From Elusimicrobiota bacterium (GTDB taxonomy: Bacteria; Elusimicrobiota; Elusimicrobia; F11), in assembly GCA_046153645.1 (NCBI GenBank), contig JBJXGI010000044.1, positions 513-64,512 of the forward strand: 64,000 nt of DNA, read 5' to 3'. The position numbers were made by a program, and so were the translations under genes. Shown here piece after piece: positions 16,901 through 40,900 of this stretch (the stretch's first letter is position 1; every line of letters starts with the position of its first letter). The notes under the pieces were generated by a model. It worked only from the letters and a program-made list of their open reading frames with translations, did no database searches and was not told the DNA's origin.

Positions 16901-19900
16901 CATAAACCATCCCACTCAACATTCCCATTAACATAAGAACTTGAAACCCAAAAGCAAAGAATTCATCTTCCCAATAATCCGAATGAAAGAATCCATGAAA
17001 ACGTTCATGTAGCGGAACCGCCAATGCAAAAAGAATAAAATGAAGAGTCAATCTTATAGCAAAGTGGATAAGCCTTCTGAAAGAAGAAGCATCTTTAGGA
17101 GCGTCACTTAGAAAATAGTGTAACACAGGATTAAGCTGAAAAACTTTACCATCTGAAACATATTGAATAAAACTGGTGCCGGGGACAGAGCGAGCGGGGT
17201 AACCCCATAAAATAAAGATAGGGGGCCCTGTTGGAAGAAAGCTTTTCCCTACTTTGGTCGCTATCATAAAACCAATGACCAAAAACATCTGCATTAAGAA
17301 AAAGAGGGGCACCACCAATAAAAGAACCAACCCTCGCCCACTTGGATTCCAATCCAATAAACCCACACCAATACCCCAAACAGCAAACGCCAGAGCAGAG
17401 ATCACCCCAAAAGCTGCGGCTGAATTTTTTAAGTTGATGGGGTTTGAGTTATCTTCTGAAGAAGCCTCTTGAGAAGCTTGGCCCATCTTGACTAAAGCAG
17501 CTATTACCCGCCAGAAAGCGTCATTGGCAACTTGTCGCGATTTACCTTTATCTATATCTTCAAGGTAAGCATTTCTTGCGATGATCAGCAGTTGGGCCAA
17601 TTGAGAAAAAGTATCTTTATTCTTTGACGCCGTTTGTATCATTTCGTAAACGTCTTCGAATTTTATTTGGAGACGAGGATCATCATTAAACGACTGCTCC
17701 CAAAGAGCACCGATCATTGAATCTGCCAACATCTTTACATCATCAGATGACGCAATGACTTTAAATAACACCAATACTGAACCTAACCTTTCAGTGCTAT
17801 ATAATAATGACGTGTTAAGTGGTGTTACCAAAATAAATAATCGTAAATTTTCCATAGTTAAAAGAGAAGGGTCTGCGGTTAAAGTATTTCGGATGACAGA
17901 GAAATACAAGTCAGAATCTGAAGCCAATATTGGTGCCATCTCCCCTGTAAAATAAGCAAATATTTCACCAAAAACAACTTTATCACTCACTTTGAAATAC
18001 CCGGCAGGGGCAGTTTCAAAAACACTCGCTAAACAAATAAAAGCCCGTTCATGAGTAAGCTTATCACTATCATTGTTTCCGGTATTTTTTTTCATTACAG
18101 AAATTAAAAATTTTAAGACACCATGAAATAGATCCTCGTTGTCTTTATCAAAAACATCTGGGGATAATAAAGGTAAAAAGTCCTCTAACATTAATGATCC
18201 ATCTAAATCAATAGGCCACTGAACCATAACGTTTATTATTCTAGAAATAAAATCGTTATCATCTTTTCCAAAATATTCTATGGGAATTTTTGGCATTAAC
18301 GAACTCAGGAAAGAAACAATTGTAATTCTGTTATTCGAATCGGAGTTTTCAAGCAAATATTCAATCGTTTTTTTCAGCAAATCTTTATCGTTCTGATTAA
18401 AATAATTTTCTGCGTCAGAGTTATAAGCCCATGCACTCAAACCTGTAAGAGCTCTTTTCAAATCATCTCCTTTTGTTTTCTGAAGGCTATTCATATATAC
18501 AGTGATAATGACTTTTTGTAACGAAAAGTTGGCATGCTGGAGCCCAATACCACTCAAGATTTCGCCATTTTTTTTCTCATTACCTGAATTAATAATCGTT
18601 ATAACGGATAATAAAGATGCCAAACCAAAGAAGAGGGCAAGAACGGTAATACTTGAAAACCATGGAATAATATTCGGAAGATAAAGCACGGATCCCACCA
18701 AAACAAGCCAAAGTAAAAATTGTACCGTATAAACAGTAAATTCATTACCCTCACCTATGACATGTGCCTTTTCGTGAATCGGGACCAATAATAAATTAAG
18801 TACAACAAGAATGGAAAAACCAATAAACCGGTGGCCAACTTTTATAAATGGAGAAGCGTTTTGAGGAAGTGGACTTAAAAAATAATAAAAAATCGGATTG
18901 ACTTGGAAAACTTTAACCGCAGAGTCGTATTGAATGAAAGTCGTTTTTGAGACAGGGAAAACAGGTACCCCCCACAACGTGAGCAGTTGCGAAGGCCCCC
19001 GGGGTAAATATTTCTCAAAAAATTTACCCGTTATAGAAAAACCAGATACCACTCCAAATAACATGAAGAATAATATTGCTGGCATCAACAAGATTTTAAA
19101 TAACATCTCTGTTTCTGGTGCAGCGCGCCAACCATACACACCCCACGCCATCAAAACCGCCACAGCCGCAATCGCAGCAGAAACACCAAAAGCGGCAAAC
19201 GAATTTTTTAGGTTGATGGGGTTTGGTTTTGTAGGATCCTCAGAAAGCCCAGGAGATTTATACCTAGCTATTAATTGAGACACAACATCCCAAAAGAAAT
19301 CCTCTGCTGCTTTTTCTGAAGATATTTTTCCCTGTTCATACCCCCGCCAGAACATTGACAACGACTGAACTAGGGCATCAAATTGCTCAGGATCTTTAGA
19401 AAGGGCAACTAGCATTTCCAAGAAGTCTTTGTAATTTACTAAAGAGGTTTGGCTCTCTAATACTTTAATAATGGCTTTGGCGAAAGGAGGAATAGAATTA
19501 TCATCAGGCTGTAACCCGATTAGACGAATGAAATCTCGTTGCCAAGCTTGAATGCCACCATCCACGTTTTGACTAAGATGATCAACAATAAACAAACGAA
19601 CGTTTTCTTTAGTGAATAATTTATCCAAAGCTTTTTTAATTTCTTTTTTTAATTTTTCGTTGGTGATTTTAGATTGGAGAAGCGTGAGCACACTGGCCTG
19701 AGGAAAATTCTCATAACTTATCGTGTTTGAATGAAACGTGGCAAGCTCTTTTATTGTTTCCTCATCTAATTCATCAAGATACCCTTGAGGTGCTTTTTTT
19801 AGCAGCAACCGTAAATTATCCATTGTACGACTGTCAAACTTAAAGAAATATTTAAAATTATTGTTAAAAAATTCTTTTAACTTTTCATCTGGCAAAATAT

Positions 19901-22900
19901 TAATAGCTTTAATGAATGAATATATTAAAGGAATTCCATCATTTTTAATTGAATTAAAAGTCCAATTTTTTTCAAAGTATTGAACCCATAGTCCAAATAT
20001 TTCCTCAATAAAAGAAACATCTTCTCCATTAAAAACATTTTTAGGGACTTTTGACAAAAATTTTCCTAGAAATGTGAGTTCAAATTGAATTGATCCATTA
20101 AATTGTTGCGGCGCTAATACGGAACTCATTTTCCTCAAAACCTTCTTAACAAAATCTTTATCATTTCTTTCATATGTATATTCTGATAATAAACTCATTA
20201 ACTCAGAAATTGCTTTAAAATCCCCTCCTTTTTCGATATCCCAAATTAGAGCATCCACGATTTTTTCCAATAAATTTTTATTCTGATTAAAAAAAGAAAC
20301 GCTCAATTTCTGGAAAAAGTTACTCCATATTTCTAACGCTTGATAACGAACTGCTTTATCAGGATTCTTAAAGTCCGCTAAAAGCGGCAGGATTAGATCT
20401 TCAACGAATTTTTGATCATCGATTGTAAACAACCTATTTGGCAGAAATAAAATAAGTCGAGACAGTATATTGTAACTGAGACGACGTTCTTCTCCTGATA
20501 TTCCGCTTATTCGATTGTAATATGCGGCACAATTCCAAAGCAGTTCTTTTATAAGCATTTTAGCATCAGGATCAAAACGAGAACCAGAAATAGGATTTAC
20601 ATATCTAGAACTAAGCTCTAATATTTTTAATCTATTTTTTTCATCTAGATCATCCAAGTTTGAAATCCAGATTCGAATGATTTCCATTAAAAGTAGTTTT
20701 GAAATGATCGGAGATTTCAGATATTTAATATGAATATTTAAATCATCTTCTTTAAATTTTTTATATATCAACATGCTTAAAAGAACGATACTGGGAAAAA
20801 CAATGAACAAGGTCGTTATGTTAGGGAATGTATAAATTATTCCCGTAAACACGCCAACCAACACAAGGGCTTGGGCGCCAAAAGCAACCAATTCATTTTT
20901 TATACCAGCTGCATGAAGCCGTTCATGCAACGGAACCGCTAACGAAAAAAGAATAAATCGAAGAGTAAACCCAATAGAAGCATGAATAACCTTTCTAACA
21001 CGAGAAGAATTTTTTGGAGCGGCACTAAGAAAATAATGGAGCATAGGGTTCAGCTGAAAAACTTTAATGGAAGGATCATATTCAATGAAATGAGTTCCCG
21101 GAATAGAACGAGCAGGGTAACCCCATAAAACAAAAATGGGTGGACCTGTGGGCAAACGATCTTTCCCTATCTTCGCCCCCACTTGAAGAAATATCGTAAA
21201 AAACATCTGGATCAAAAAGAAAACAGGAATACCTATTAATAGTGCTGTCGCTTCCCGAGAGGGGTTCAACCCAAAACCAACTCCTAGACCATAAAGTAAT
21301 AATGCCAGTGCCAACGTTACACCAAAAGCTGATGCCGCATTTTTCATATTGATGGGATTTGTGGAATTTTCATTTGAACTAAGTTGGGAAGACCGATGCA
21401 ATTCGATTAATGAAGATACCGAATTCCAAAAAAAATCTTCTGCCGCTACTTTTGAGCTCTTCTTTTCTTCTTCATAACCACGCCAGGCCATTGAGAGGGC
21501 CCGAACCATCACATCAAACTCTCCAGGATTTTTAGAAACGTTTATCAACATCTCCATAAAATCTTTATGCCTTATAACGGAATCTTGATCCTCTGAAACT
21601 TTAAGAATTGTCTTTATCAATAGTGGCGCGTCATCTTCATCAGATTGTGATTCCATTAAAAGCATGAGATCCTTTTGCCAAGGCTGAAGGGCAAGATCTA
21701 CGTTTTCTGAAAAAGTATCCATAAATAATCGAATGTTTTCTCTAGTGAATAACTTATCAAAAACATTTTGAATTTCTTTTTTTATTTTTTCATTTGTAAC
21801 TTTGGTCCGAAGACGAGCAAGCATCATGATTTGAGAATAATTCTTATACTTTATTTCTATGAAATTAAACGCGGCAAGCTCTTTTATAGTTTCTTCATCT
21901 AATTCATCAAAATACCCCTGAGGAGCTTTTTCAACAAGCACCCCTGAATTGTTGTTTGTCATCCAACTATCAAACCTAGAAAAATATTTCAAGTTTTTAT
22001 TGAAAAATGTTTTTAATTTATCACCCGATGAAATATCGATAATTCGAATGAAATCAGATCGAATTTTATTATTCCGAATTAAAACATCATTCTTGTTTTT
22101 CTCAAAGTACTGCACCCACAAATCAAATATTTCCCGAATAAAAGAGGCATCTTCTTCATTAAAAACATTCGTTGAAATTTTTGACATAAACTTCCCTAAA
22201 AACTCAAGTTCGATCTTAGATGAAAACTTAAATTCTCTAGACACCATCATGACGCTGATTGTTTTTAAAATAGTTTTAATAAAGTTTTTATCATTACCTC
22301 CATATGAGTATTTACTTACTATATTAATTAAAGTAGTCAACGATACAGCAGCAATCTCTGGCTCTTTATCTAAATTCCAAATTAAACCATCTATTACTTT
22401 TTTAAAAAAGTTTTTACTATCTTCTCCAAAAAAAGGCGATCCTAATGAAAAATAAAAATGCCCCCACATTTCTATTATATGAGAACGGATTTCCGTATTG
22501 GGATTCTTTAAATCTTCAATAAACGGCGCCATGAGTTTTTCAACATTTTTCTGATCAGTATCTTGAAATAATCCATTGGGTATGCCGGCAACAAATTGAG
22601 ACAACAATTCATAGCTTAAGCGATATTTTGGTTTTTCTATGCCGTCAATCTGACTGATATGAACTCCCCAATTTCGGAGGATTTCTTTTAATAACTTCAT
22701 ATCTGAGGAATTCCATAGCCCACGAGAAAAAATATTCTTATTTGCACGCAACACTTCTAAACTTTCCAACTGAATCTTTTCATTACCTTCCGCCAACTTC
22801 GAAACTAAAATCAGAGTTGCTTCTTTTCGAAGTTTTGGGGCTATGGTTAGCCATAAATATTTACCAAGAATTTTAATATCGTTATTTTTTAATTTTTTAT

Positions 22901-25900
22901 ATATCAACATAGCTAACAAAACGATGACGGGAAAGATAATAAACAAAGTAGATATACCAGGAAAAGCATAAACTATACCGCTAAACACGCCTACCATTAC
23001 AAGGGCTTGAGCCCCAAAAGTAACTAACTCATTTCTTAAACCAGCCGCGTGAAGGCGTTCATGTAACGGAACTGCTAACGCAAAAAGAACAAAACGAAGG
23101 GTGAACCCAACGGCAAAGTGAATCAATTTTTCAATTGTAGAAGCGTCTTTAGGAACAGGGCCAAGGAAATAGTGTAAAACAGGATTAAGCTGAAAAACTT
23201 TGTGATATGGATCATATTCAATGAAATTGGTTCCCGGAAAAGAACGAGCCGGGTAACCCCACAAAACAAAAATGGGTGGCCCTGTCGGCAAAACGTTTTT
23301 CCCTACTTTGGCTGCCACTTGAAGAAAAACAGTGAGGAGCATCTGAATTAAAAAGAACACAGGAACGACCAGTAATAGCGTTGTTCCTTCTCGAGAAGGG
23401 TTTATTCCAAAACCAACTCCGATGCCATAAACCAATAACACCAACGCTAACGTTACGCCAAAAGCTGTTGCCGCATTTCTTATATTAATAGGATCTGCTG
23501 AATTCGTCTTAGCGGAAAGTTGAGAAGATCTATATCTTTCGATTAATGAAGATACCACATTCCAAAAGAAATCCTCTGCTGTTATTTCTGAAGATATTTT
23601 TTGCGTTATGTAGGCACGCCAAGTCATCCCAAGAACTTGAGATAGTTCATCAAAACTATCGTCATCCTGAGAAAAAGCTTTCATCATTTCAAAAAATTCT
23701 ATTTTATCTTCAACAGAGGATTGACTTCTTAATACTTTAACAATGACATTGGCAAAAGGCGGAATATTACTTTCATCGGGCTGAGATGCAAATAATTGAA
23801 ATGGCTCTAACTGAGAAGAGGTAATATTATCCTCGGGATCAAATTGGAAAAACGAACTGGAAGTAATAAAAAAATGGAAAATTTCCTTGGAAAAGAACTT
23901 ATCTTGGAATTGCTTAATTTCTTGTTTTATTTCTTTTTTGGTCACCTTAGACTGCAAAAGCATAAGCATTTTATACTGATCTAAGTTATCATAGGGAGAA
24001 TTCTCATACCATTTAGTCATCCCAGTAATTGTTTCTTTATTTAAATCATCAAAATATCCAGTTAACTGAAATAACAAGTCACCTAACAAATCAATGGTTT
24101 TTCGGCGAATAAACACATTTTCATATTTTAAATTTTCTGCTACTGCTGTGATTATTTCCTCAGCGAACTTTGTATCGCTTTCAACAAAAAAACCTTCAGG
24201 CAACAAGGATAAAATATTGGACACCTGATTAGAATTAGGATCTTTTGATCGAATAAAATGGGCAACTAGATTACGAAGTAGTTCCTTAACGAGTTCTTTA
24301 TCATTTTCATTAAATAAAGATTCGCCACTTTCACGTAAATAAGTGCGTAAAATTATAAAACTAGCTAAACGCAATTCTTTATCGTCATTATTGAGGATTA
24401 ATACCAAAAACCGAATTATTTCTTTCCGAAGTGATGAGGCATTAGTTAGAGACGTATATTCTTGAGGCGTATATTTTTTAAGAATTTCTAAATCGTCTTC
24501 GGCCATATCTCTAAACACAATAATAATTAAAATTATTACAGGGAAAATAACAAATAACATTGGCGCATAAAGATAAGCATAAACCACACCGCCGAACATC
24601 CCAAAAAGAAAAAGGGGCTGTACACCAAAAACAACCAACTCATTTCTCCAACCAGCTGCATGAAGGCGCTCATGGAAGCGAACAGCTAATACGAAAATAA
24701 GAAATCGAAAAGAAAACCCTACAACAGCATGTATTATTATTTTTGGAAAAGAAGCAGTTTTGGGGGCGGGACCAAGAAAATAATGAAGAACAGGATTAAG
24801 CTGAAAAACTTTGTGATATGGGTCATATTGAATGAAATTGGTTCCCGGAAAAGAACGAGCCGGGTAACCCCACAAAACAAAAATAGGTGGCCCTGTCGGC
24901 AAAACGTTTTTCCCTACTTTGGCTGCCACTTGAAGAAAAACAGTGAGAAGCATCTGAATTAAAAAGAACACAGGAACGACCAGTAATAGCGTTGTTCCTT
25001 CTCGAGAAGGGTTTACTCCAAAACCAACTCCGATGCCATAAACCAATAACACCAGCGCCGACGTCACCCCAAAAGCCGCTGCCGCATTTCTTATATTTAT
25101 GGGGTTTGCATTATTATTTTTATCTTGGGATGTCCGATTTGCATACACCAGATGAGCAATTGTAATCCAAAAAGAATTTTCTGCCGCTGTGGGAGAAGCC
25201 TCCCGTGGATTATTTTTGGCATTCCATGCTAACTGGAGGGTTTGGAATACAAGATCAAAATCACGATCGTTTTGAGCGCTCTTCCATAACATGGCGCTGA
25301 TCTTAGGAAAGTCAAAATATAGAGACTTTGTTTCTCCGTTTAAATCTGTAATATTTACGTGAAAAACGTCCGGTATATTTAACGCTTCGATGATGGCGCC
25401 AGCAGCAGAGCGTACTTCTTCTGAAGGGGCTAAATCTTTAAAAGGTTGGATTAGTTCAATATGTTCAGGTGAAAATTGAAACACCCTTTCATATTCTTTA
25501 ACCGTCCGGATAATCGATTGAAGATTCTTTTTGGTGAGCAATGAAGGGCGCGCTTTCAAAAGATAAATTAACGGATTGATATGAGCTGTCATTGGATATG
25601 ATGATTTGAACTTTAATTCGTTCATCAGCAAATCAAAAACTTGAACAAAAAGTGCACTTTTTTTCGGGTCATCAGTTTTAAAAAATTCAGGTGGAACCCT
25701 TGATAAAAGATATTCAAATATGGCTTCACGTTCAGACCCCGGATTGAAAAGATCTAAATTTTTGGCTACAAATTGAATAACAGTTTCAACTAACAAATCA
25801 TCACTTATTGCAAATAGATCCGCTGGAGCGTCGTATAAAAATCTTTGAACGATATAAAGTCTCGCGAAAAGAATCTCGTTTGAATCATCATCTAAACCTG

Positions 25901-28900
25901 GAACCAAATATTGAATTTTCTCTTTGATAAAATTACTATCACTATTAAGGTAAAAAGGCCCAGAAATCTTTGACAATATTCTTTCTAAAACGCTCAAACT
26001 TCCAAAACGTAAGTGAGCATTCTTGTTTTTTGAATTGATGGCTAAAGTACCTAGCCACTCTTTGACCACTTCAGGATCCTTTGAATAAAAGTCGGCAGGG
26101 AAACTATCAAATAAGGTACTTAATACTTCAAGTTCTTTATCACTCAATTCCTTTTTATCTCTCAGCTTTAGCATCAAAGTTACAACAGCTCCCTCTATTA
26201 ATTCATGAGCTATCCCAGGTTGTGAAAGCGTTTCTATAAATTGATGCAACTTATTGCTATTTATATCCTTTTCTCTAATCATGGCCATGAGCGTTAATAC
26301 GGTTGAAATAACCACAAAAAGAGCCCCGATCATAAACCCTGAAGTCCATGATAACCCTTGGGAGATAAAAAGAATGAAGGCAATTCCAGATATCCACAAT
26401 CCCATTTGAATCCCATACGAAGTCCATTCACTTCCGTTATTTTTGGCGTGGATTCTTTCGTGAAGAGAGATGAGTAATATGTGAAGAAGGGTTCGAATTA
26501 CGAAACTGAGAAAATAATGTTTTGCTTTATTAAAAATTGATAAGTCTTTTGCAGGCGGAGCAAGAAAATAATAAAGAGCAGGGTTTAATTGATAGGCTTT
26601 CGATTCTGGATCATATTGCACAAAATCAGCTTCTCGAAATGAATATGCTGCTGTTCCCCACAACATCATAAGAGGCGGCGCATTGGGGAGATTTTTTTTA
26701 TTGATATCGTCATAAACACGAATAAAAAGAACCAGCGCCATTTGCAAAATCAACAAAACAGGCACCGCTGCCAACATCACTATCGTATTCCAACCAAATG
26801 CCCCACTCGACGAATACATAAAATACCCAATCAACCCTGAAATCAATAACGTGGCAAACAAGACAACAAATGAATTAGATAAATTAATGGGCTTAGGTTC
26901 TCCAGAAGAATTTTCATTGGAAGAAAGTTGCAACCGTTCCCCCAAGTTTTTTTCGAGTGGGAGTTTGCCATCTCTTCGTCTGGCTTTGAGCTCAGCAATG
27001 CTTAAAAGAACTTTAAGCATCCCTTGTGCGTCTGTGCCTTTGGGAAGGTTAAGACTTTTGGGAAATTTGATAACCTCAGGCGTGTTGTAACCGACAATAA
27101 CAATATCAATTCCTTTTTGATGCGCTTCTTCCAATAAGCTTTCGCTGCAGTCCACTTGCCCATCGGTGATGACAATTTCCAAAATCGGAAGGCCGTCTCT
27201 TTTTTTATGTTTGTCGATAATAGATCGAATCACACTTTCAAAATTATTCTCTTCAGCGGCTGGATACTGATCTAAAATTCTTAAGGCTTCTTTTACTTTA
27301 CCTGCCTTATGAGAATCTTTGGGATCAAGTAAAGACCTATAACTATCACCATGAACAGCGAGTCCTGTTTTTACTTCTTGGTTTTTGACCGCTGCTCGGT
27401 GGAAAAGGCTCACAAATTGACTGGCCATATCCACAAAAGTGCGGTTGAGATCACCATGGGTACTTCCACTCACATCGACGGTCACCGCAAAATGGCCGCG
27501 GGTTCGCCCGCGCGTTGATTCAACCCGAATAAAAATATCGGAATTGCCTCGAGTGGCAGCCAATTCATCTAAATCAATTTCATCGCCATCACCACTTAAA
27601 AACCGCACTTCGGAGGGTGCGCCAGCAAAAAGTTTTAAGAATTTTTCCAAAAGTCCCGCTGGAATTTTTGAAATATCAAGCAATGAGTCGCCTGTTTTAA
27701 CATCAGGTGAGTCACTTGGTTTTTCTGGGCCTGTTTGAGGGCCTTTTTCTTTTTCGCCTTTTCCATCACCGCGATCTTTTTTCGGGCCCGGAGTAAACCG
27801 AGGACGATCTTTTTTATTTTTAGAATCGACCGTAACTTTTTTCTCCACTTTACCAACTACTCTTTGTTGATATCCCTTATCGACACCTGCGGTAAAGTCT
27901 CTCTCCCAACCGTCGCCACTTCCTTGAGTTACTTCTTGCGAACCCGGTTTTGCGGTATTTAAATAAACAGATCTTTTTTGGTAAATTTCCGCCGCTAATT
28001 TATTAACTTTGGTAGGGGGTAATTTTTTTAACATATCAATCACACGGTCCACTTTTTCGCTTTCAAAAGCGTCTGTAATCCATTCGTCCCCGGCACCGGG
28101 CTCAAGGGTCTCTGATCCATCTTCATTTCTTTCTAAACATATTTTACGAAGCCCATTTAAAATACCTTTCATGGCTTGCCCATAGACATGTTCAGGGTCC
28201 CTTATTTTTTTCAGCCATTTACGTATAAATTCTAAATAATTATTCGGTGAAACAAATATAAGTGGAAATAACATCGGATTAAGTTCAATATTGTCTGGAA
28301 TAGGGAACGCCTCTGCGCGGTAACGACGCTGATCTATCATATGCCCTGTTTCATGAAAAACAGTCCAGGCCAATGCTTCGTCCAAAGGAACAGTTTCGGG
28401 GATGGCCGCTCGTGTGTCATTTTGGAAAGCCACGGCAAATTCACCTTCCCAATAACCTAACAACCCAGGTGAAGGTGCATTTTCTAGAACGAGTGCCTGA
28501 GGAAGTGGCTGAGTTCTCAAAGGACTATCAGCAGCGATTCCAATCACATCATAATGCTCCGGTGTCCACTGACTAAAATGGTTGATAATTTTTTCAGCTT
28601 TGATAAATAAATAAGGCATTTCGTATTGATCTCTGGATTCGCCCACTAACTTAAGAAGAAGGAAAATATCTCGCCCGGGTTGAGCCAAAATTCTCCGGAT
28701 AATCATGATATTTTCATTAAACTCAACTATGCTTCCTTTTTCTGAGTTGTAAATATTTGCAATGGAACGAAACGCATTTTCAAGGGCCCCGTCAATTTGA
28801 CCAGCAATGTTAAAAATACTTTGTGCAATATGGAAATTTTCCGGTTTCTCATTTGTAAATTGAAAATCAGAAATCGCTTGTAAAAATGGCGCGACAATAC

Positions 28901-31900
28901 GATTACCAAATTCAACAAAGTCAATGCTTCCACTCCTAAAAGTAGCCGCCGCTAATTTCAAAGCATCTAAATCATAATTCGTCTTAAAATTCTCAATAAC
29001 TGCGGGTTGACTTGGAGCTTCCATGGGAGAGGTGGGCTTGTCATCTTTCTTAGGTTCTTCTTTTTCAGCGGATGACGCTGCGCGCTGTAATTGTTCTCGA
29101 ATCGCGCGAAGCCATTCGTCATTGATATCCGGGTTGGGATATCGTTTTAAACCTTTAAGAAATTCGCTTTCGTCTTCACTGCTCATATCTTTTGTATCGG
29201 GATGTGAACTTGGGATCACTTGCCGTGACACAGGCACATAACCTTCTTGCTCGGGCGTTTCTGTGGAACCCGTTGTTCGTCTCTCAAGAGCTTCCTGCAC
29301 ACTTCTCACACCACGACGAGTGAGTTCAGTTAGAATTGTTTTTAATTGAGGATCTGGATAACGTGCTGGATTGGCTGGCCAAAATTTATGGGCGTATCCG
29401 GCGATTTCTGATGGAAAAGCTTGGCGACTGTCATAAGTTTCGGCAGGGTTAAATGTGAGAGCCAAGAGAACATCTTCTTCAATTTCAACTTCCCATGTTT
29501 CTCCCATATAATAAAAATCAAACCGTTTTTCCCCTCGGAATAAAGGGGCCAATGGATGGGTCAGCGCGGTAGCCACATTGGCTTCGTCCCAAACGACCAG
29601 AGCCCTTGAAGAAGTTGTTTTTCCAGGCACTCGAATTTTCTGCCAACTTCTATCAGAACCTTTTGGGCGAATTTGGCCGATACGCGCCAAAAGCTCTTTT
29701 ATGTTGAGTTGAATTTTTCCTTGTTCTATTCCCATACTCATAAAAACATCAGCAATACGCATATCTTCATAAGAATTAAGAACATAAAGCGGAGTGCCCG
29801 TAATGAGAGCGGCATTAACCATTCCGGCCGTTTTTGCAACTCCGGTTTCTCCATTGACCATCACCACTCGAGGAGAGCGAGCTTCACTCGGACTTTGAGT
29901 TTTATCCGATCTGGGTTGCCACGCATTAATAATTTCAGCTAAGAAAATGGTGTGCTCTGGCGTCATTTCCATAAAAGCGCGAGTGGGAGTTTCGTGGACG
30001 GGCAAGGCTCGGTCATTATTCCAAGGATCTTGAGGTAAATCGAAAGCGCCTATTCTTTTTAAGATTTTATATTCAACAACAATCGAATCTCCACTATCAT
30101 TAAGATAGGCTGTTATTTCATCGGTCACTTTTAATTTGTTTCGAAGCGCATTCATATTGAGGTTGTAAGAGCGCGCGGGTGTTGTTAATGTTATTTTTCC
30201 TTCTGACTTATTGCTGTAGCGGAAACGAAATCCATTGGGAAGAGGTAAATCTTGGCCTTCTTTTAAGTCACTTAATTGAACCTCTTTCCTTACGGTTTGA
30301 GTTTGTAGATTAGAAAAATCTTCAAATACTTCCTGCTTTAAAAGTCGGTAATATCTCGACAATTCGGAAACGCTGATTAACTCCTCTTGAATTGGTTTTT
30401 TAAAAATGTCGCGGAGTAAATTAAACACAACGTCTCGTTCAAACTTTTTTAAATCATCATCTTTGAGAGCGCCCAAATAAATAAGTTGAACCGCACGAAG
30501 CACATAATAAAGCGGGTCGTATTTAAGTGGCCGCCAAGACCGGCGTTTTAATTCTTGTATAGCTGAGGCCAATTTAAAAATATCTTCTGGGGAAAAATAA
30601 TAACGCACGTCAAAACCGCCACTTGTATCTAATTCCACCGCTTTTTCTTTTATCTGCCAAAGCCAATCAAATTCTCGGTCATCGATGTAAGGGTACCGTT
30701 TGAGTAACAAACGGCGAGTTTCATCTTTAGAAAACGGTTCCACTCGAACGGGTAAAAAACGATTCATAAAAGGAGACGAAAAACGGTGATTCACGGGCGC
30801 CGAAACAACCAATCCCACCCAAGGAGGGAGAATATATTCGACAGGGCGGCCCTCCGCATCACCAATAGTCAATGTTCTATTTTCTCCCATTCGCGAAAGG
30901 AAGAGATTAAGAATGACTCGTTGGCGTTCGGGAATTGCGTCCATCATATGGAAAAAAAGGATTTTTTCAGGGTGCTGGGGTTCACGGGAAAGGCGATTAT
31001 ATTCATCCTGTGTTAACATATGACTGGCTAAAAAACCCAGCGCCTGTTTAAATTCACGACCAACACTTTGTTCGCGAACACCATAATCGTTGAAATTCGC
31101 ATTAAAAAGAGGGACGAGCGCTTCTACCAAATGAGAGCGCTTCATTTCTCCATGGGACCAAAGAATTTCTAACTCACGGTTGGTTTGATGAGCAAATTTG
31201 CGAACCAAATCCAACGCGTCAGCCCCCACCTCTTCTTGGAGCGCCACCGGCATTCCCAAAGAAAGCCCATAAGCAAGCGACCATAGCGCTCCATTTTGAC
31301 TTTCCATTTCTTCGGTGAAACGAATTTCTTTTTTGTCCACATTCGTCTTACCAGAAGATTCTGCGATTTGAACCCCACCAAAGTTATTCGGTTGAATAGT
31401 GAGGGGCCCCTTCCATTCTGTTGAAAATTCTTCGACCAAATCATTAAAACTTTTTGTTGCGGTATCTTTTTTTGCCAACACCGTCTTTCTCTCTTGAAGA
31501 GAAAGGCGTTCGAAATAAGCCACCATAGCTCCACGGAATACAGCACGTTTTAGTTCAGCTGCACTGGTTTTATTTTGGCTGATGGCATCTTTGAGTCCTA
31601 ACGACATGAGAATTAATTGTCGAGGAGATAGATCGTCTTTATTGGGGTGGTGCGCCAGAAAACCAAGATGAATATTGGCCATCAATTCTTTCATCGGTTG
31701 AAGATCGGGCGTTGAAATTTGAGCTTTAACAATTCCAAGATGGTGGTTAATAATTAACAGCGCGTCTTCAAAAGAAAGAGTATTTTCAGCCCAAATTTTG
31801 TGAGCTCTCGAATCGGCTTCATAGGGAATGGGCAAACGATCCTGAGTGATACCAGCCGGGTTTTGCGTAATAAACAAACGAAAGTTTTTATGCCGCTTAA

Positions 31901-34900
31901 TGGGTGGGCCGGGATAACCAGGATGATAATGAGACAAATCAATGGAAGGAAGGGCCGCCAAAGAACAAAGAAATTCGATTACTTTTTGAGATGAGGTTCC
32001 CACCGCTCCTTCATCTAAGTTAACGGCTCCCCCATTTTGATAAGCGCGTAAAAAATCAAGCAGGTATTTCCCATCATCGTCTGTTTGCGCGGTTAAAATG
32101 AGTTCTCCTTTTTTAGTCGAAAGGCGCCCTAAAAACCCACCCAAATCAATTCCATCAAACATGAGTTGATCATAATGAGGCACACCCATTCGTTGGGCCA
32201 TGGTTTGAACCAAGGCTGATTTTCCGCCTCCCTGATATCCTTCAATAACGCTCCAACGCTGATGCCGCCAAGCGATGATGGAACTTGCCATTTGTCTCAC
32301 GTGGTTTTCTGTGGGAGCTAAAAACCCTGTTGGTTCAGGTTCTGAAACAGGATAAAGTGTTTCAATAGAAATGCCGTCAGCAAAAAAGATCCAATGGTCA
32401 CGGCCCGCTTCTTTTCGGTATCCAATATTTTTTTCAGGATGGTCCATTTTTTCTTTTGCTAGATCAAATTTTTTCCGAATTGAAGGAGGTAAACCGATAC
32501 TAAGCGTGTAATAAGAAATCTTATCGAGATCCTTTTTAAAATCGGTTTCATTTTTTTCATGAGCTTTCTGTTCTAAAAACAGTTCGGAAAAAAGTGTTTC
32601 TAGATCATTAATACTGAGTCGAAGATTTTCATACATAGCTTCGCCACCGCTAGCCGCATCACGATAAGCTTGGAGAATATGAGAAACCTTTTCTATGAGC
32701 GTCTCTTTATACTTTGGATTTATTCCCCCAAGGTTTAATTTTTCTAACCATCCCTCAACACTTTTTTCTACCCATTCTTTTCCTTGTTTTTCAGAAATAT
32801 TAACTGCGGCGAAACGGTCTAACTCTGGGCCGCCAATTTTAATTTCTTCTTGGGAAGAAGCAGTGGCAACCCATTTCAAATTTTTGGGTTGATGGGTATA
32901 AAACCAACGTGCAAAAGCAAGGCGCATAGTTGGGTCACTCTTTAAATCGTCAACAGAAATGGGGCCAGGGTAACCTTCTGTTAATTTTTCGAAATTAACA
33001 CTTCGATCTTTTATCTCTTTTACTATGAGTTCGAATAATTCATCGGCGTTGTCTTGGGTTAGACGAGTGGAGAGTGCTTCTAACTCACCTGTTTGAAGAA
33101 ATTCATTTAAAAGTGGCATTATTTTTTTATTAAGACGAGCGTAATTTTCTAACACAACGTAAACACGTTCAGAACTTAAGCGGGCTTGCAAAATAAAGGT
33201 CCCAATCAAACCGATTTCATAATCCAGTTTTTGAAATCTCATTCCCCCTAGTTTTTGTAATAGTTGAGCCAATGCGTTTTGGTTGGATCCGCGTGGCATC
33301 CAGGTTCCCACCCATTGTTTGTTATCGTGGTAAAAACTAAGCGGTACACGAACTTTTTCTGCCTTCGAATCAATTTTTCCAATTAAATCCATCACAACAT
33401 CGCCACCGGAAGAGCCTGAGGCATCTTGAAACACCATGGTGGGAGAATCTTCTAATAAAGCCAATTGCAGTGTGGCCTCACCATTTTCTTTTATATTTGG
33501 CATACCATGACGCACCAAAACATCATTCACAATTTTTAAAACGGTATTTTTTTCATTTAAATCTCTCCAGGAAGAACAATAAATATCTCCGACCGCGCGA
33601 ATAAAAATATCTTGTAGGGTTAATGAACTTTCTTTCTTTTTAATCGATTTCATGCGCTCAATCACACGAAATAAAAAACGCCGCGTGACCGGTTGGGTTG
33701 TTTCAATTGAATTCAACTCATTTTGAGCACTCCAAACGGCGCGGTGAACCTCTGCCAAAATAGGCGCATAAGTGGAAGCGTGGGGCGCAACATCTGAATC
33801 ACTTTCAAAAAATTGGCGGGCAAGACCAGGTAAAGCATTTGGGTCAAAACCAAGTCGATAACGGGGAACGGTGGCCGCCACACGCCGGGGCCGAGGCTCG
33901 CGACCAGCGGTTCCTTCAGAATTAACAGTGAAAAATCGCATGTTGTTTTCACTTGGTTTCACTTTTCTTACAGAACTTCCGGCACTTTCTTGAGCGGCGA
34001 ATTCAGGCAATGTTTTAACAGCTTGTCGTGCGGTCTCCGGATAAAGCCATTGGTAAACCCGGCTTTCAGGGCTGGTATTAATTTCATTAAAAATATGAGC
34101 ATACCCGCCTTCTTCTAATTCACTCACATAAGCGGCTTCTTCAAATTGAATGCCTCCATTTCGATCTGAAACAAACCGCCCACGTAAATCACCAAGATCG
34201 GTGGCTGCATTAATGGTTCTTTCTGAAATTTTCAAATTAATTATTTTTGAGAACACGCGACTGATTTCAGTTTTCCCTTCGCCCGAAGGTCCTTCAATTT
34301 CAACGGAACGAATTCCATACTTCCAATCACGCGCCAGTTGACTTAGAATTCGATTTTCCATTTCGGTGAGGGCAAAACCATATAAATGGTTGAGCGCTTT
34401 TTCGACACTGTCACTCGGAAAATTTTGGTGATGTTGTTTTATCTGATCATTTGAAACAATCTCCACTCCATCAAAAACAATGTTACCTTCAGCTGAAAAC
34501 GTAAGCGCCGGAATAGAGCCATTTCTTTTTATTCCTAATTCATTAAGCATTTGACTTAAAGTTAACCAATCTTTTCGGTTGGATAAATTTAATTTCAAAT
34601 AAGCTTCCACTTCTTGAGAAAAAATAGCCGCTGGATCAAGACCCGCCTTATCTTTTAAGCGACCAGCCACACGCCAACCGATATGCACCAAATCAGAAAA
34701 ATTCCAATCAGGCGCGTCTTGCCAAGACGTTTTTTTCAAAGAATGGTAAAGTTGAAAAAGTTGCGCTTCTACTTCAGCCGTGACCCCCGTTTTTTGAACC
34801 AAATATCCAGCCTTAGATAAATTGAAAGACGAAGTAAATTGCATGAGAACACGGTTAAGAAAAGAATCATCTCGAACCACAGAATCTTGGTCCATCGTAA

Positions 34901-37900
34901 AAATAAATTGGACATTGGGCGGAATTTGAACTTTTTCACGACGATCAGGAATATCCGCTTGTTTTTCCCACAGCACCGGATTAAGCAACACGCGAACTCG
35001 TCCGGGAAGAGCTTCCGCGTTATCGATAATAATGGTGTGCTGCATATCTAAATCCCGAGCGGCCTGGCGAGCCATTTCAACCAAAAAACCATCCCGCCAC
35101 GACATGGTGTCTTGCCACGCTTCTGGATTGGCCAAATAAACAGCCAAGCTGGAACGAACGGCATCATCTTTTATTATTTCTCCTAGATGACTGTTCATTT
35201 CATCAATTAAGTTTTTTGCATCATCAGAAACATCGAAAATCACTTTAAGCGCTTGTAAAATTTTCCCGTTTTCTGTTTGAGCCTGTAAAACAAGTCTTTC
35301 TCTTTCAGAGACACTCATCTGTTTATTGGGCATGAGCATGCCAAACAAATCTTTTCTTTTGGCAAAAGCGCTGGCGGAAAAACGAACCGTACGACCATCT
35401 TGTTTATCTAAAGTCGCCAAACGGTCTTCAACGATCATGACATCATCAGAACCTGTGACGAGTAATAAAGGGCGAGAGCTTTGGCGCGATCGAAGGATTC
35501 TCGCATCAATGGCTCTTTCAAACGGGGATAAATTGTCTTGACGCTCGGGCTCTGTATTTTCGTAATCCGAAAAATTCATTATATTTGCGATTGTTTGAGC
35601 GGCGTTTTCACTTGAAAACTGTTTGAGCTGCTGAGCGCGAAAAATAACAGTGGCTCCTTTAGATGTGGTCCTCAACATTTCGAATAGTTTATTGGTGAAC
35701 TCAGCCCGTGCCTGGGGTGATACTAAAACACGACCGTAAATATTTTCAGCGGTTAAAATAAATTGGCGGATCACATCGCCCAAATTGTGAGCGCCTTGAT
35801 TCGCATTACGAAGATAATAATTACTAAAGTCCACATAAAAACGAATGAGTTCTCGAATGGTAACGGCATTTTCACTCAAATTTCCAGATTGGGCGGCCAA
35901 TTTTTCTGCGGCACGGAACAATTCCACACTCATATCCTGAATCGCCTCAATATCTTTGGGACTCAATTCCGAAGGGGCCACACCTTCAAAAAAAGTGGAT
36001 AAATAAATAGAAACCACACCGTGAAAATGACTCTCACCTTCAACAATATCACCCTTTACAATTCCACGAAAAGTGTCAAAAAGAAGGCCTAATGTTTGCA
36101 AGTTTGGAGTTTCATTAAGGAGGACATACATTATTCCAATCATCGCATCACTGGATTGATACTCACCAAATTTAACCAGGCTTTTTAACTTAACCGGGTC
36201 ATTCCAAATATTTTTATCACCTGAGGCCATTTGTTCAACAGCAGCACGGATCGAAGATCCAAGACCCAAGGCGGCAATGGCAGTTCTCGTCTCACCTCCT
36301 TCTGCTTGAAGGGCCGCTAATTCTGCTGCTTCAGAAGGAGTTAAGGTTGATTTTGCACGTAAAGCGGCAATTCGGCTTTTTCGAGCTGCCTCTCTGGATT
36401 TTCTTATTAACTCAACAGGATCTAAACCACCCATTCCGCCAATTGTTAAAAAAGGCAACCAACCTGTCAGAGGTTTTATAAAAGGAATAACAATTGAAAG
36501 TTTTTTTAATAAACCAACCGTTAGGTTGTATAACAGTTGAAGTCCCATCAAAACTAAAATTCCAGATAAACCCACCACTGATATTACCCCCGGCAAAAAT
36601 AAGCTTGCGCCAAAGATGAACGCAACAGTTCCGATAAATATTTTTTGTTTTGTGGTGTTTGGTTTTCCATCTCGCCCCAAGGTGTGGGCGCGACCAAAAA
36701 GGAAGGACATAAAAGCATGCGCGAAGAGCCCTATTAATATTGTTGTATCCGACGGCCAAGCGGAACTGGCCAACGCGAGTAAATAAACCGGCATAAAATA
36801 TGGCGCTTCTTTAAAAACTATTTTTAGTTCGAGGTATAAAAATGAAAAAAAGGCATTGCGATAAAAGATAAAAGATCCTAAAAGATCAGCGAAACTCCTC
36901 GAGTTACCTCTTCTATACTTTTGAACTAATTCATCTACCCCGGGGACGTTTACACTCGAAGATCCCGAATTATTATGAGCTAATCCCAAATTCAAACCCA
37001 GACCATCACTTCCTGATACAAGCAAAGAATCGGAACTCTCATCCTGATCAATGAGCATGGCCCAAACTTGCCAAAAAGCGTCCTCCGCCATTTCAGGATG
37101 CTTTTCGTGATCTCGTTCATAAGCTCCCCAAGCCATGACGAGACTCCGCATGAGCAAATCGTATTTATCTTCACGTTCTGAAGAGCGCTTTAAAAGGTCT
37201 ACGATCTTTTGCGAAGATATCGAAATCACTTTTAGAGAACCATCTTCTTTCGAAATGACAACTTCTTTGGTTGAATGAATACCTACTATAGCTTCATGAA
37301 TGATCTTAGAAACCGCTTGAACATCATTTGACGTAGACCAAAATCCAAGAAGTTCAACGTTATATTTGGGCAACGCTTTTATTAAAACTCGAAAATTTTC
37401 CATGGTTAAAAAAATTTTTCTTTGCTCATACAAATCGAAAGAATTTTCAAGAGTTAAAATAACCTCTTTTTTTATTTCCTTGGACATTAAGCGATCATCG
37501 ATGCCTTTTGTCAGTTCTATAGTGACAGTTTTAATCAGTTGCCTTTCATTAAAATCACTAAAATTGATAACGCTCAGTAGACTATGCCAGCAAAGCATTA
37601 ATACATCTAAAGTAAACTTTCGATTTACTTCATATTTTGCCTCTTTAAAAAATAAATCCAAGGCCTTAGCAAAGGATAAACATATTGTTTTTAAAAAAAT
37701 CTGATCTTCAGAATCGTTTAAGTCAAAAACATAATTATCAACATATTGACTAATCTGCCCTAATGCAAATGCCCCGAACGAACCAATGTCCTCATTTTTA
37801 TTTTTTAATATAATATTTATGGCCTCTCTAACTATTCTTTGATTTTCAAGTTTTTCTATGCCAAAAAAATCTTTAGGAATAGCCGAAAAATAAGAAACAA

Positions 37901-40900
37901 AATCAAGCACCAATTTTTTATACGCAGCCGTATCATCTTCAGAACTAAAACTTTTAACAAATTGCCTCAGTTTATTCCGAATATGTTCATGCAAATCATC
38001 GGCATCCTTAGGAGTAGAGGAGGGGAGTGGAGATGAAGAATTAAGACGGGCCTGTAAAACATCTAAGTTTAAACTTGTATTTTGGGACCCAGGGTCAGTC
38101 GTGGAATTAGGATTTTGGTCAGAATCAATGAGCCGTGCCCACACATCCCAAAACACGTCTTCTGCCATCGCGGGAGAAACAGATAACCTCTCTTCATAAC
38201 TACCCCAAGAAACAACAATAATTCCAACAAGAGTCTCAAAATCTTTTTCATTTTCTGAAACCCGCTTTAAGTATTTCAGAATCGTTGAACGAAATATCTT
38301 CACTTTTTTTTGGGAACCATCATCTTGTTCAATAACGACTACTTTCGGATACTGTAATTCATCAAACAGTTTGACAATGGCACTAGCAAATGACCTTACA
38401 TCCCCGGAGGATGACCAATTTTTAAAAACACTAATATTTATATTTGGAAATAGTTCTATAAGGATTCTAAGGTTTTCTAATGTGAGAAAAACGGAGTTCT
38501 CTTCTTTTAAATTATTTTCTTCAAAAAAGGTATTAAGATGTTTAATAAGTGTTTCTACGTTGAAACGAGAAGTGGTTCCATTATTTTTGACCAAAAAACC
38601 AAGAAGTTTAGTAACAACACGTTTGTCATTCGCATCCGTGGTATTAAAAATATGTGGCCACAAATTAAAATTCATACGCAATATAGATCCTATTTGGGAA
38701 CCCGCTCCATTCTTGTCATCCGGATCTAAGGCATTAACCAACGAGGAAAGAATTATTTTTAAAAAATCTTTTTGATCTGGGTCTGTTATATCGAGGACAT
38801 AAGGCTCTAGTTGACGAAAAATTCTATGCAACAGTGCTGCACCCAATAACCGAACTTCTTCAACTTCATTTTCTAAAACGATTTTTATTACTTCTCTAAC
38901 AAGTCTCTTATTCTCGGATTTTGTCCGATCAAAAAAAGAATTATGAATTCCAGTAAAATAATGAATGAACTCAGTTAGCAGTGCTTTGTTTGATGTTTTA
39001 TTGGAACTAAAATTTTTAATATATTCTTCAAGTTTAGATTGAATTTCCTTCTCTTCTTCTTTAGAAATTGTAGCGAAGGGAAACCAATTGGCAACAGGCT
39101 TAATCCATGGAATATTTTGCGCTAATCGTTTAATGGCCCAAACCACTTGGTTATAAATGAAATGAATCCCCATCGACAAAACAAAGGACCAAATTCCTAA
39201 AGTATTGATCACACCTGGAATTAAGAAGACTCCACCAAAAACGAAACCAAGCCCCATTAAAAAATATTGTTGATTTCGACTGTAACCTGTGTGATCTTTT
39301 CCGAATTGATAGGCCATCGCAAGATTGAGAATGATTCCTAACGTCATCACAACAGGAGATGAAAACAATAATGGCCCCAAAATAACCATGAGATAAACGG
39401 GGAGTTGATAAATAAATTCTTTAACAACGACCCACAATTCACGCTTGAGTTTATATTGATCGTTCGCCGGGTCATCAGCTTTTTGAACCACCAGGTTAAC
39501 CAAAATCTTTTGATGAACAATTCGAACGGGCGCTATCAAAATATTTTTAAGAGTGCCCAATCTTGAGAGAACACTGGCCATGGCTTCAACATAAGCGCTT
39601 GGGCTTGTTATGTTTTGTTTTTTAGGATTGATAAAAAGTTTTTCACCTAAAAAAAGACGATCCAGCGGTGTTTTTTCTCTAGCGAAGGCACTAAGATAAG
39701 CGCTAGCGCCAGCTTCATCAACTTTGGTTAATTTGGGAGTGACAACAATATAAGGGATATTTTTCTTTTTAAAGAGCGCTGTGATGTGGGGCGTGTGGAA
39801 GCCGCCAACAATAACGGCAGTTCCTGGATTTTGCCCTCTCCCTAACCCTCTCCCGTAAAACGGGAGAGGGGAGGGTGAGGGGTTTTTAAGGAGTTTCCCC
39901 ACCATCTTCTCACTGCGAATATCCGCTTCCACATAAAACCGCTCAAAAGAGGTGAGGTTTGCAACACCCTCCTCACCCTGACCCTCTCCTCCCTTTCGGG
40001 AGGAGAGGGGAATTAATTTTTTGTATTTTTCCCATTCGCTGGCTGTCAGGGAGAAATGAATCAGTTTTTCAACCAAGAGAAGATATTCACTTTTAGCGAC
40101 GATTTTTTTTTCTAAATCTGTTTTTGCTAATTTTTCAACAATAAAACTCTCTAGTTTTTCTAAGGCCTCAAATAATTTATCGGCTTTTATTCCATCGGCA
40201 AGACCGACATAACGAATGTAGGCATCGAATGCGGGGGTCTGAGAAAGATGAATTTCTTTTCTCTGGCAAAGATTTTTTAATTCTTGATAATAATCTCCAA
40301 AACCTATTTGGCCGGCGCGGTAAGAGACACTTTGTGCTAAAAATAAATTCATTTCTTCTTGGTTTAAAGTTTTAGCTAAACGTTCAACAACTTGGCGGCG
40401 CTCTATTTCTACTTGTTTAAAACGAAGCGCTGCTTCCATTTCATAAGCGGATAAAAACTGTTCTAAGGTGGGATCAAAAAAATCATCTGCCAAGGCACTT
40501 ATTTTCTGGGTATAAAAACCCAAACTTATTTTCCCTGAGTGGTAATTTTCTCGCAACGCATCAAACTCATTAAGGCTCTTTGGAAAAACCTTTCTTTTTT
40601 CTTCATTTAATTTATTTTTTTGTAATTGTAGATCTCGTTTTGTTTTTTCTTTCAATTTTTGTGAGGAAAGATAGGCATTCACATTAAGATCATAATGCGC
40701 TTCATCATCAATTCCAACAAAAGCGGGTGGTTCCACTTGACTCATAATGCCCACATAAGAGGGCGCAGCCAGACGATTGTTTTTAAAAAAAGAAGCCATC
40801 ACAAAGGACACCACTTTTTTGTCTTCTATTGAACGAAAAGCGGAGAAATCAAATTTTTCAAAAGCCCCCTCTACGCCCACCATGTTCAATTGGCCCTGAT

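Follow-up and report, generated by a model that had tools for sequence, protein, structure and literature searches.

Alternating dead and live AAA+ modules in a giant bacterial protein point to a probable single-chain ring with trans-completed nucleotide sites

The minus strand of a 64,000-nucleotide stretch of Elusimicrobiota bacterium DNA (GenBank assembly GCA_046153645.1, contig JBJXGI010000044.1, positions 513 to 64,512; hereafter the window, in whose positions all coordinates are given) carries an open reading frame (ORF) of 10,179 residues, the ATPase part of which occupies window 29220-35537 on that strand. The encoded protein contains, in order, six tandem AAA+ modules of the MoxR/midasin type, a domain with an HExxH motif, a disordered tether and a VWA domain with a metal-ion-dependent adhesion site (MIDAS). 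Three modules have live P-loops and alternate with three dead modules that retain an arginine finger. We consider it probable that these features are, as a whole, best explained by a single-chain AAA+ ring of three dead-live pairs whose nucleotide sites are completed in trans. The ORF and the parts of its ring, with residues numbered as amino acids (aa), are as follows.

10800..41339, minus strand: single ORF, 10,179 aa, one ATG-to-stop frame with zero internal stops, including all the parts listed here and further below.
34800..35492, minus strand: module 1 (M1), aa 1950-2180; dead, with pseudo-P-loop TGSDDVM and D-N at the Walker B position.
34851-34853, minus strand: M1 arginine finger R2163 (FLNRV), kept.
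33825..34328, minus strand: module 2 (M2), aa 2338-2505; live, with GPSGEGKT (K2356) and the atypical Walker B IFNE; the finger column has T2490 (VAATV).
32766..33461, minus strand: module 3 (M3), aa 2627-2858; dead, with DASGSSG and E-N at the Walker B position; finger R2842 (ELDRF) kept.
31755..32276, minus strand: module 4 (M4), aa 3022-3195; live, with GYQGGGKS (K3040) and Walker B NLDE; R3178 in the finger column (ADSRAH).
30705..31271, minus strand: module 5 (M5), aa 3357-3545; dead, with acidic pseudo-P-loop EEVGADA; finger R3527 (FMNRF) kept.
30051..30308, minus strand: beta-rich insert of ~85 residues, aa 3678-3763, between the M5 lid and M6; its strands, at residues 339-424 of the model of aa 3340-4539, are confidently modelled.
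29346..29888, minus strand: module 6 (M6), aa 3818-3998; live, with GETGVAKT (K3836) and Walker B VWDE; Y3982 in the finger column (IAGYA).

The register in which these motifs are compared was checked in three independent ways, namely by MAFFT alignment, in an AlphaFold2 model and by conservation in 70 representative relatives. In a MAFFT alignment of 88 module sequences, TGSDDVM, DASGSSG and EEVGADA all fall in the Walker A column, and FLNRV, ELDRF and FMNRF share a column with the arginine of the midasin RNRF motif. VAATV (T2490) and IAGYA (Y3982) also align there, with the arginine replaced. Every P-loop or pseudo-P-loop in the AlphaFold2 model of M2-M5 lies between strand β1 and helix α1, and the finger columns (model residues 156, 508, 844 and 1193) lie between helix α4 and strand β5, which is the canonical place for an arginine finger.

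All 15 motif strings quoted in an earlier note on this DNA are present in the translation of the ORF, within window 29391-35456. That note held that M1, M3 and M5 lack the P-loop lysine and retain the finger, and that M2 and M6 appear to have lost the finger; both statements are borne out by the register checks and by the census of relatives described below, in which arginine is rare at the positions of T2490 and Y3982. It also credited M2, M4 and M6 with Walker A and Walker B motifs. The three Walker A motifs stand, as do the D-E pairs of M4 and M6, but the IFNE string of M2 is N-E rather than D-E. Furthermore, M4 has an arginine in the finger column (R3178) that went unmentioned, and this residue is not conserved (arginine in 6/60 relatives).

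Relatives were collected with an exhaustive HMMER search using aa 2320-3519 as the query, which gave 269 representatives (50% clusters) at E ≤ 0.001, and the best 150 of the 269 were listed. A hidden Markov model (HMM) of the ring, built from the window's protein and 10 close relatives, was used to align 152 fetched proteins, 149 of which match at E ≤ 1e-10. The family is taken here as the 70 representatives with ring-HMM E ≤ 1e-51, of which 51 are at least 2,500 residues long; the window's own protein stands outside the 70, and each census denominator is the number of family members having a residue in that column. Family members are mostly metagenome proteins, and the named ones are a few proteins from Candidatus Omnitrophota metagenome-assembled genomes and one from a Chlamydiota metagenome-assembled genome, annotated only as 'AAA family ATPase'.

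The alternating dead/live pattern is a character of this family and is far beyond chance. The Walker A lysine is present in M2 (59/59), M4 (61/61) and M6 (55/55) and is nearly or wholly absent from M1 (0/36), M3 (4/55) and M5 (1/54). The finger column has the opposite distribution, with arginine invariant in the odd modules (M1 56/56, M3 37/37, M5 60/60) and infrequent in M2 (2/60), M4 (6/60) and M6 (4/46), where at least eight different residues occur. Walker B is D-E in every relative at M4 (62/62) and M6 (55/55), and the corresponding position in the odd modules is mostly x-N or x-D. Among 59 relatives, the M2 Walker B is S-E in 33, N-E in 23, D-E in 2 and A-R in 1; the N/S-E form is thus common to nearly all relatives and constitutes a conserved non-canonical Walker B. 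Proteins ranking just below the 70 have a midasin-type pattern, and the remaining 79 matched proteins are mostly midasin-like, with D-E and arginine where they align to the live modules (M4 column arginine 56/71).

Mean pairwise identity across 14 proteins that cover all six modules (13 relatives and the window's protein) is 32-40% for the dead modules and 39-46% for the live ones. Conservation of the dead modules is thus close to that of the live ones, which indicates that they are under constraint. The dead-module pseudo-P-loops are rich in acidic residues, averaging 1.1-1.9 D/E per 8 residues compared with 0.3-0.8 in the live P-loops, and in M5 (window 31215-31235, aa 3369-3375) the sequence EE[DE]GAD is conserved among close relatives. 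These acidic pseudo-P-loops may fill the nucleotide pocket in place of phosphate. A lysine three residues past the finger column was considered as a substitute finger for the even modules and was ruled out, being as common in the dead M5 (33/60) as in M4 (35/59) and M6 (25/46).

In single-chain rings of this clade, the site of each module n is served by a finger that comes from module n+1, as has been stated for Mdn1 (PMC6920918). Applied to the census, this rule places each intact module, M2, M4 and M6, directly ahead of a module whose finger arginine never varies (M3, M5 and, once the ring closes, M1), and each dead module, M1, M3 and M5, ahead of a module whose finger arginine is lost across the family. 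A complete set of Walker A, Walker B, sensor 1 and finger occurs only as the composites M4|M5 and M6|M1, where action in trans is predicted, M2|M3 having N-E instead of D-E. The proposal of the earlier note that dead modules complete the sites of their live neighbours is thereby supported, with the trans action itself predicted from sequence, and its three active sites may be two canonical ones plus an atypical one at M2.

The odd modules might instead be structural spacers whose invariant arginine serves folding or packing at the α4-β5 junction rather than the neighbour's ATP site. Dynein offers a parallel, in that its dead modules AAA5 and AAA6 are usually called structural. However, a structural arginine should persist in the even modules, which have the same fold, and it is there that the column is so variable. 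Finger retention also tracks exactly the presence of a P-loop in the preceding module, and a structural role leaves the loss of the finger beside dead pockets unexplained. We regard the spacer explanation as unlikely.

Assignment of the modules to the AAA_5 type is supported by profile searches of unequal strength. Pfam AAA_5 matches the N-terminal part as a whole at E 3.6e-15 (56.6 bits, cut-off 22). Singly, M1 (E 3.7e-5, 24.2 bits, the match covering its C-terminal half) and M2 (E 3.7e-6, 27.4 bits) exceed the cut-off, M6 (E 0.012, 16.1 bits) and M4 (11.6 bits) fall under it, and M3 and M5 gave zero Pfam hits. When the 2,333-aa ring was searched as one query against PDB sequences with phmmer, 0 hits came back at E ≤ 0.01. 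The best solved sequence relative of M4 is Schizosaccharomyces pombe Mdn1 (6or5, E 8.1e-9), in an alignment to its AAA5 module, followed by NorQ and CobS. Profile-profile comparison with hhalign matches M1 and M5 to midasin modules at E 1e-9 to 1e-12, including M1 to midasin AAA1 at E 2.1e-12, and M3 to M1 (E 2.6e-17) and M5 (E 1.3e-12). M4 and M6 also keep a sensor-1-type asparagine (QNPA and FNPA).

Predicted structures are consistent with this assignment. An AlphaFold2 model of aa 2335-3534 (M2-M5), built from a 24-row alignment, has a mean predicted local distance difference test score (pLDDT) of 83.2 and a predicted template modelling score (pTM) of 0.84, and comprises four beta-alpha-beta modules with lids. 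A second model (m3929c61ee8a4) covers aa 3340-4539, that is, M5, M6 and the post-ring part, with pLDDT 77.1 and pTM 0.60. The dead M5 superposes on complete MoxR protomers, namely cso-CbbQ (5c3c_A; Z 16.4, 2.8 Å, 223 aligned residues of a 231-residue chain) and NorQ (Z 15.5). As one body, the M2-M5 model matches four consecutive dynein modules (Foldseek E 1.5e-27, TM 0.55-0.61), with a VIA Z of 19.5 over 920 residues at 4.6 Å against yeast dynein 1779-2918 (AAA1-4), and it matches Rea1 (6hyp, residues 1068-2283) with Z 18.4 over 882 residues at 6.8 Å. M5 and M6 together fit Rea1 1722-2299 over 445 residues at 3.7 Å. In both models the modules are arranged in an arc with the curvature expected of a ring.

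Ring closure is the step at which a different assembly would enter. The six modules might form an open spiral, or chains might swap modules, such that the M1 finger serves M6 of another chain or no site at all. Closure is something we infer, and membrane tethers on both sides of the ring could favour arrays. Against such an assembly, the chain has six modules, the number found in dynein, midasin and MoxR hexamers, and the four-module and two-module models track the ring curvature of dynein and Rea1. The M1 finger is also invariant (56/56) even though the chain has no AAA module ahead of M1 for it to serve. We give open or swapped arrangements only a small chance of being correct. A complex prediction for M6 (aa 3795-4111), M1 (aa 1940-2215) and ATP, folded without alignments, scored 0.01 against a mark of 0.34, a result that speaks neither for nor against closure.

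The six modules are also related to each other in a manner that follows their alternation. The earlier note anticipated that odd and even modules would cluster separately, and they do so both in hhalign comparisons of the six module alignments (28-60 rows each) and in maximum-likelihood trees. Odd-odd comparisons give E values of 2.6e-17 (M1-M3), 1.6e-22 (M1-M5) and 1.3e-12 (M3-M5) over 160 or more columns, and even-even comparisons give 1.3e-24, 6.4e-25 and 1.1e-26, the last for M4-M6. The best odd-even values are 1.8e-7 (M5-M6) and 6.5e-5 (M4-M5), with the others at 0.001 or worse. The first IQ-TREE analysis used 88 module sequences from ten hand-picked, family-spanning proteins (M1 covered in 7, M3 in 5) and six midasins, and, like the later one, was a quick search with support from the Shimodaira-Hasegawa-like approximate likelihood-ratio test (SH-aLRT) only. 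Each module forms one clade across the family, M2, M4 and M6 group with support of 100, and M1, M3 and M5 group with support of 99. Both the odd and the even clade still have 99 on the 147 columns that remain once those of Walker A, Walker B, sensor 1 and the finger are taken out.

These clades support an origin in which a dead-live pair was triplicated or three such pairs were fused. The triplication of a two-module unit proposed in the earlier note fits the separate clades, whether the motif columns are left in or out. Alternatively, M1, M3 and M5 could have decayed separately in an all-live six-module ancestor, and six-module relatives with alternating A-type and B-type modules, all live, do exist (protein P0062, described below), so decay could have followed the six-module stage. 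However, the three dead modules share more than lost motifs, including hhalign E values of 1e-12 to 1e-22 and x-N at the Walker B position, and they group together in a clade that excludes the archaeal odd modules (support 99), a pattern for which the copying of one dead type is the simplest reading. Gene conversion between modules could mimic shared dead-module ancestry. Separate decay seems to us improbable, and triplication of the pair is the account we carry forward.

In the mechanism that we propose, the ring would belong to the MoxR/midasin/dynein (AAA_5) clade and would have arisen via triplication of a two-module unit. M2, M4 and M6 would bind ATP via their own Walker motifs, and M3, M5 and, upon ring closure, M1 would supply an arginine finger across the interface to these three sites. 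The finger donors would have given up their own P-loop and catalytic glutamate while staying well conserved, and M2, M4 and M6, whose own finger is lost, would as donors face dead pockets only. Three composite nucleotide sites would result, with M4|M5 and M6|M1 canonical and M2|M3, with its N/S-E Walker B, perhaps able to bind ATP with slow turnover. By analogy with midasin and the MoxR-VWA systems, motion of the pairs relative to one another, driven by ATP, would work on the VWA/MIDAS domain at the end of its tether and perhaps on the HExxH domain, with the result that a protein ligand at the membrane's cytoplasmic face would be pulled on or remodelled. Trans finger action, ring closure, hydrolysis, the substrate and the membrane side on which the ring lies are all predicted elements of this scheme.

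Several points weigh against this proposal. The M2 Walker B lacks the Mg-binding aspartate in 57/59 relatives, so M2 may not hydrolyse ATP. The trans role of the arginines is suggested by homology and covariation, and closure between M6 and M1 by the number of modules and the invariant M1 finger. No midasin module is a significant hhalign match to M3 (best E 0.0053), and the identity of M3 as an AAA module is transitive, via M1 and M5, and model-based. Both structural models were built from shallow alignments, of 24 rows. Because the 70 sequences are related, the census represents six retained ancestral states rather than 70 independent events, and because the ring HMM derives from the window's protein and its 10 close relatives, the alignment of distant members leans on those sequences. 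A ring that is wholly a pseudo-enzyme scaffold, binding nucleotide without hydrolysis or not at all, would suit the atypical M2 Walker B and is very improbable, given that M4 and M6 retain the Walker A lysine, the Walker B D-E and the sensor-1-type asparagine, that their lysine and D-E are invariant in all relatives covering those columns and that the trans arginines are invariant as well.

The closest counterpart in overall architecture is midasin (Rea1/Mdn1/MDN1), a eukaryotic AAA+ protein that remodels pre-60S particles, which likewise has, in a single chain, six modules of the AAA_5 type and then a VWA/MIDAS domain on a tether, and whose modules are likewise grouped by parity. Midasin also pairs a dead site with a finger lost in the next module, in that AAA6 of Mdn1 lacks a working Walker B and AAA1 lacks the finger that would sense the AAA6 nucleotide (PMC6920918). 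The two differ in that most of 22 midasin-length representatives (4,700-5,100 aa) have six P-loops, whereas the family described here alternates strictly. The working sites of midasin are AAA2-5 (PMC6920918), whereas here the P-loop is gone from M1, M3 and M5. Midasin has a long helical linker and a D/E-rich region ahead of its MIDAS domain. The linker has ~1,700 residues (PMC11603028), in place of which this protein has an HExxH domain of ~340 residues and a short K/E/P-rich tether. Midasin lid profiles gave zero Pfam hits at E ≤ 0.01, and a missing hit is no proof of absence. The present protein is, furthermore, bacterial, flanked by hydrophobic segments and set within a chain of 10,179 residues. 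One-to-one kinship with midasin AAA1-6 was considered and ruled out, since the bacterial odd and even clades stand apart from all midasin modules and the hhalign partners are not collinear.

The closest match in logic is the pairing of Torsin, which itself is not known to have an arginine finger, with LAP1 or LULL1. In that system a live AAA+ protein needs a dead partner of AAA+ fold that has no nucleotide motifs and keeps the finger, and an alternating (LAP1-Torsin)3 ring has been proposed (PMC4358337). Here too, by the census, the finger is kept by the dead partners and missing from the live ones. Torsin-LAP1 differs in comprising separate polypeptides of another AAA+ clade, located in the eukaryotic endoplasmic reticulum lumen and having no VWA domain.

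MoxR-VWA pairs (NorQ-NorD, CbbQ-CbbO and RavA-ViaA) and the chelatase motors ChlI/ChlD and CobS/CobT belong to the same AAA+ clade as the present ring and combine an AAA motor with a VWA/MIDAS adaptor. In these systems identical single-module proteins form the hexamer and a separate chain carries the VWA domain, whereas here six different modules lie in one chain, in which a MoxR-type motor would be functionally joined to a VWA/MIDAS domain. ChlD, which also carries a VWA domain, was considered as a further example of a dead finger donor. This candidacy is weakened by the fact that Synechocystis ChlD retains its Walker motifs and that a finger mutant keeps >50% activity, and the ChlD AAA module has been described as a nonessential ATPase (PMC3789969).

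Dynein heavy chain and RNF213 are likewise single-chain six-module rings that mix live and dead modules, and dynein is the best structural match to the M2-M5 model (Z 19.5). Both differ in being eukaryotic and in having no VWA domain. Their dead modules (AAA5-6 in dynein, four of six in RNF213) lie in blocks and do not alternate. Beyond these rings, the α3β3 hexamer of F1-ATPase and the clamp-loader delta-prime subunit provide examples, in separate chains, of a non-catalytic subunit giving an arginine to a catalytic neighbour; F1 falls outside the AAA+ proteins, and nucleotide binding persists in its alpha subunit.

Six-module proteins with all modules live also occur in prokaryotes (P0062, P0158-P0161 and P0166) and are nearer to eukaryotic midasin than the dead-live family is. 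P0062, a protein of 4,005 aa named as from a Thermoproteota archaeon, has six P-loops, in which GETAxGKT alternates with GPTASGKT, together with a D-E Walker B motif and a finger in all six modules and a DxSxS motif in its C-terminal part. Its nearest relatives include an Omnitrophota 'HEAT repeat' protein, with eukaryotic midasins next at E of about 1e-150, and P0062 and similar proteins are possibly prokaryotic kin of midasin. The bacterial even modules prefer the even modules of P0062, and odd prefer odd. In a 94-row tree, support is 91 for the sister relation of the bacterial and P0062 even groups and lower, 74 and 57, where the odd groups join, and an overall A-type/B-type split across bacteria, archaea and eukaryotes has support of 68, which we offer as a lead only. 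Midasin modules (P0097 and others) cluster by parity as well, with hhalign scores of 333 for D2-D4, 258 for D2-D6, 249 for D4-D6 and 235 for D3-D5, and with long inserts in AAA2/4/6.

The dead-live order of the ring keeps step with the A-B alternation of P0062 and its relatives and of midasin, and the A-B unit may be older than all three lineages. A joint reading, tentative and more doubtful than the ring proposal itself, would hold that parity is ancestral, that six-module MIDAS motors were made in prokaryotes from a two-module unit and that midasin and dynein descended from such a protein. The dead-live family would then be a branch in which the A module came to serve purely as an arginine donor, making the ring a single-chain analogue of the α3β3 arrangement. 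The conventional account places the origin of the six-module protein, from MoxR, 'early in eukaryotic evolution' (PMC3495828). If parity is ancestral, midasin, and through it dynein, would have a prokaryotic protein as ancestor and would not be an invention of early eukaryotes.

Downstream of M6, a gap of about 620 residues, made up of the HExxH domain and a K/E/G/P-rich tether, leads to the VWA domain, after which 5,400 further residues follow in the same chain.

27963..28970, minus strand: post-ring domain, aa 4124-4459, with HETGH at aa 4329-4333 (window 28341-28355).
27510..27938, minus strand: low-complexity K/E/G/P-rich tether, aa 4468-4610; pLDDT <50 from model residue 1129 onward.
26970..27494, minus strand: VWA domain with MIDAS, DVSGST at aa 4622-4627 and a later TDG; Pfam VWA at aa 4621-4752, E 6.9e-7, 30.1 bits (cut-off 23.8).
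26709..26882, minus strand: hydrophobic segments after the VWA domain, aa 4820-4877, from a crude Kyte-Doolittle scan.

The HETGH domain appears zincin-like from its motif and from a predicted sheet with a long helix. In the model of aa 3340-4539, its strands occupy model residues 886-966 and the HExxH lies within a helix at 980-1004, with a long helix and a disordered stretch between M6 and this domain. Zero Pfam families match the region (aa 4041-4600) at E ≤ 1, and comparison of the domain with the ESM Atlas found only unnamed clusters (top score 0.93; recognition 1949, where most known families reach 2300). Relatives of the domain have the consensus HELGH. By a crude motif count in 45 long relatives, HExxH occurs in 35/45, DxSxS in 35/45 and both in 27/45. 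Together with the segments at aa 4820-4877, hydrophobic segments at aa 652-711 and 1580-1598 in the same scan bracket the part of the chain from the ring to the VWA domain.

The C-terminal half of the protein (window 10803-26702, aa 4880-10179) has eight more HExxH motifs at aa 4960-9435 (HERIH, HERLH three times, HEKAH, HERFH, HEKSH and HEKLH), each amid clusters of strongly hydrophobic segments that are spaced about 540-720 residues apart. This half looks like a series of repeated membrane-embedded zincin-like units parted by soluble stretches; Pfam searches of it gave only sub-threshold HEAT/TPR-like hits. Upstream of the ring, window 36540-39062 (aa ~760-1600) has two similar units of ~500 residues, one beginning near SKLEEYIKNFSS and the other near HIRNKLRQFVKSFSS, with a hydrophobic cluster after each, and these two units are an internal duplication. 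The N-terminal part (window 39400-41339, aa 1-640) has a signal-peptide-like start and is common to relatives (P0002, for example, begins with a similar segment, DAHCNYSAQ / GGFH); this conserved head domain is probably extracytoplasmic.

The dead-live ring family is rare and patchy in the genomes searched. Matches at E ≤ 0.001 occur in 4/41 related genomes, the window's own included, and with this query 0/11 genomes of the same family hold a relative. An even sample of the phylum gave matches at E ≤ 1e-10 in 4/401 genomes, again counting the window's own. The genome matches sit in open frames of 3,435-5,723 residues. We found no published description, and the phrases 'prokaryotic midasin', 'bacterial midasin' and 'archaeal midasin' each occurred 0 times in a full-text literature search. 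The main text of a preprint on Omnitrophota giant genes reports AAA_5 among the frequent domains and has 0 occurrences of 'dynein', 'midasin' or 'MoxR', and in that of a 2026 preprint on long Omnitrophota proteins the count is 0 for these three words and for 'AAA'.

Donation of a finger by a dead AAA+ partner to a live one is already known from LAP1-Torsin; what is new is that a single bacterial chain of the MoxR/midasin clade has this logic hard-wired three times over, and that a whole family conserves it. Single-chain AAA+ rings such as dynein, midasin and RNF213 have been treated as eukaryotic, and this bacterial family has the same chain architecture along with a VWA/MIDAS domain. Its predicted division of labour is clean, with three ATP-binding modules and three arginine-donor modules, and would offer a natural, genetically fixed system in which to ask how many sites a ring motor needs and how trans fingers couple neighbours. 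With the all-live prokaryotic cousins, the origin of midasin and dynein becomes testable by phylogeny and structure. The ring would also be a first clue to function for some giant Omnitrophota proteins.

The host contig is part of a 2.6-Mb genome that is 99.7% complete, and the neighbours of the giant ORF are ordinary for bacteria, namely a ZIP transporter, dnaX, recR, an ABC transporter and AbiEii. A second very long ORF, of 3,165 aa, lies at window 48527-58024 on the minus strand and matches zero Pfam families at E ≤ 0.001. At window 8459-9980 on the plus strand, a 220-aa ORF without a Pfam hit overlaps the start of the gene for the AbiEii nucleotidyltransferase toxin (E 8.8e-33), and the two are probably an AbiE-type toxin-antitoxin pair.

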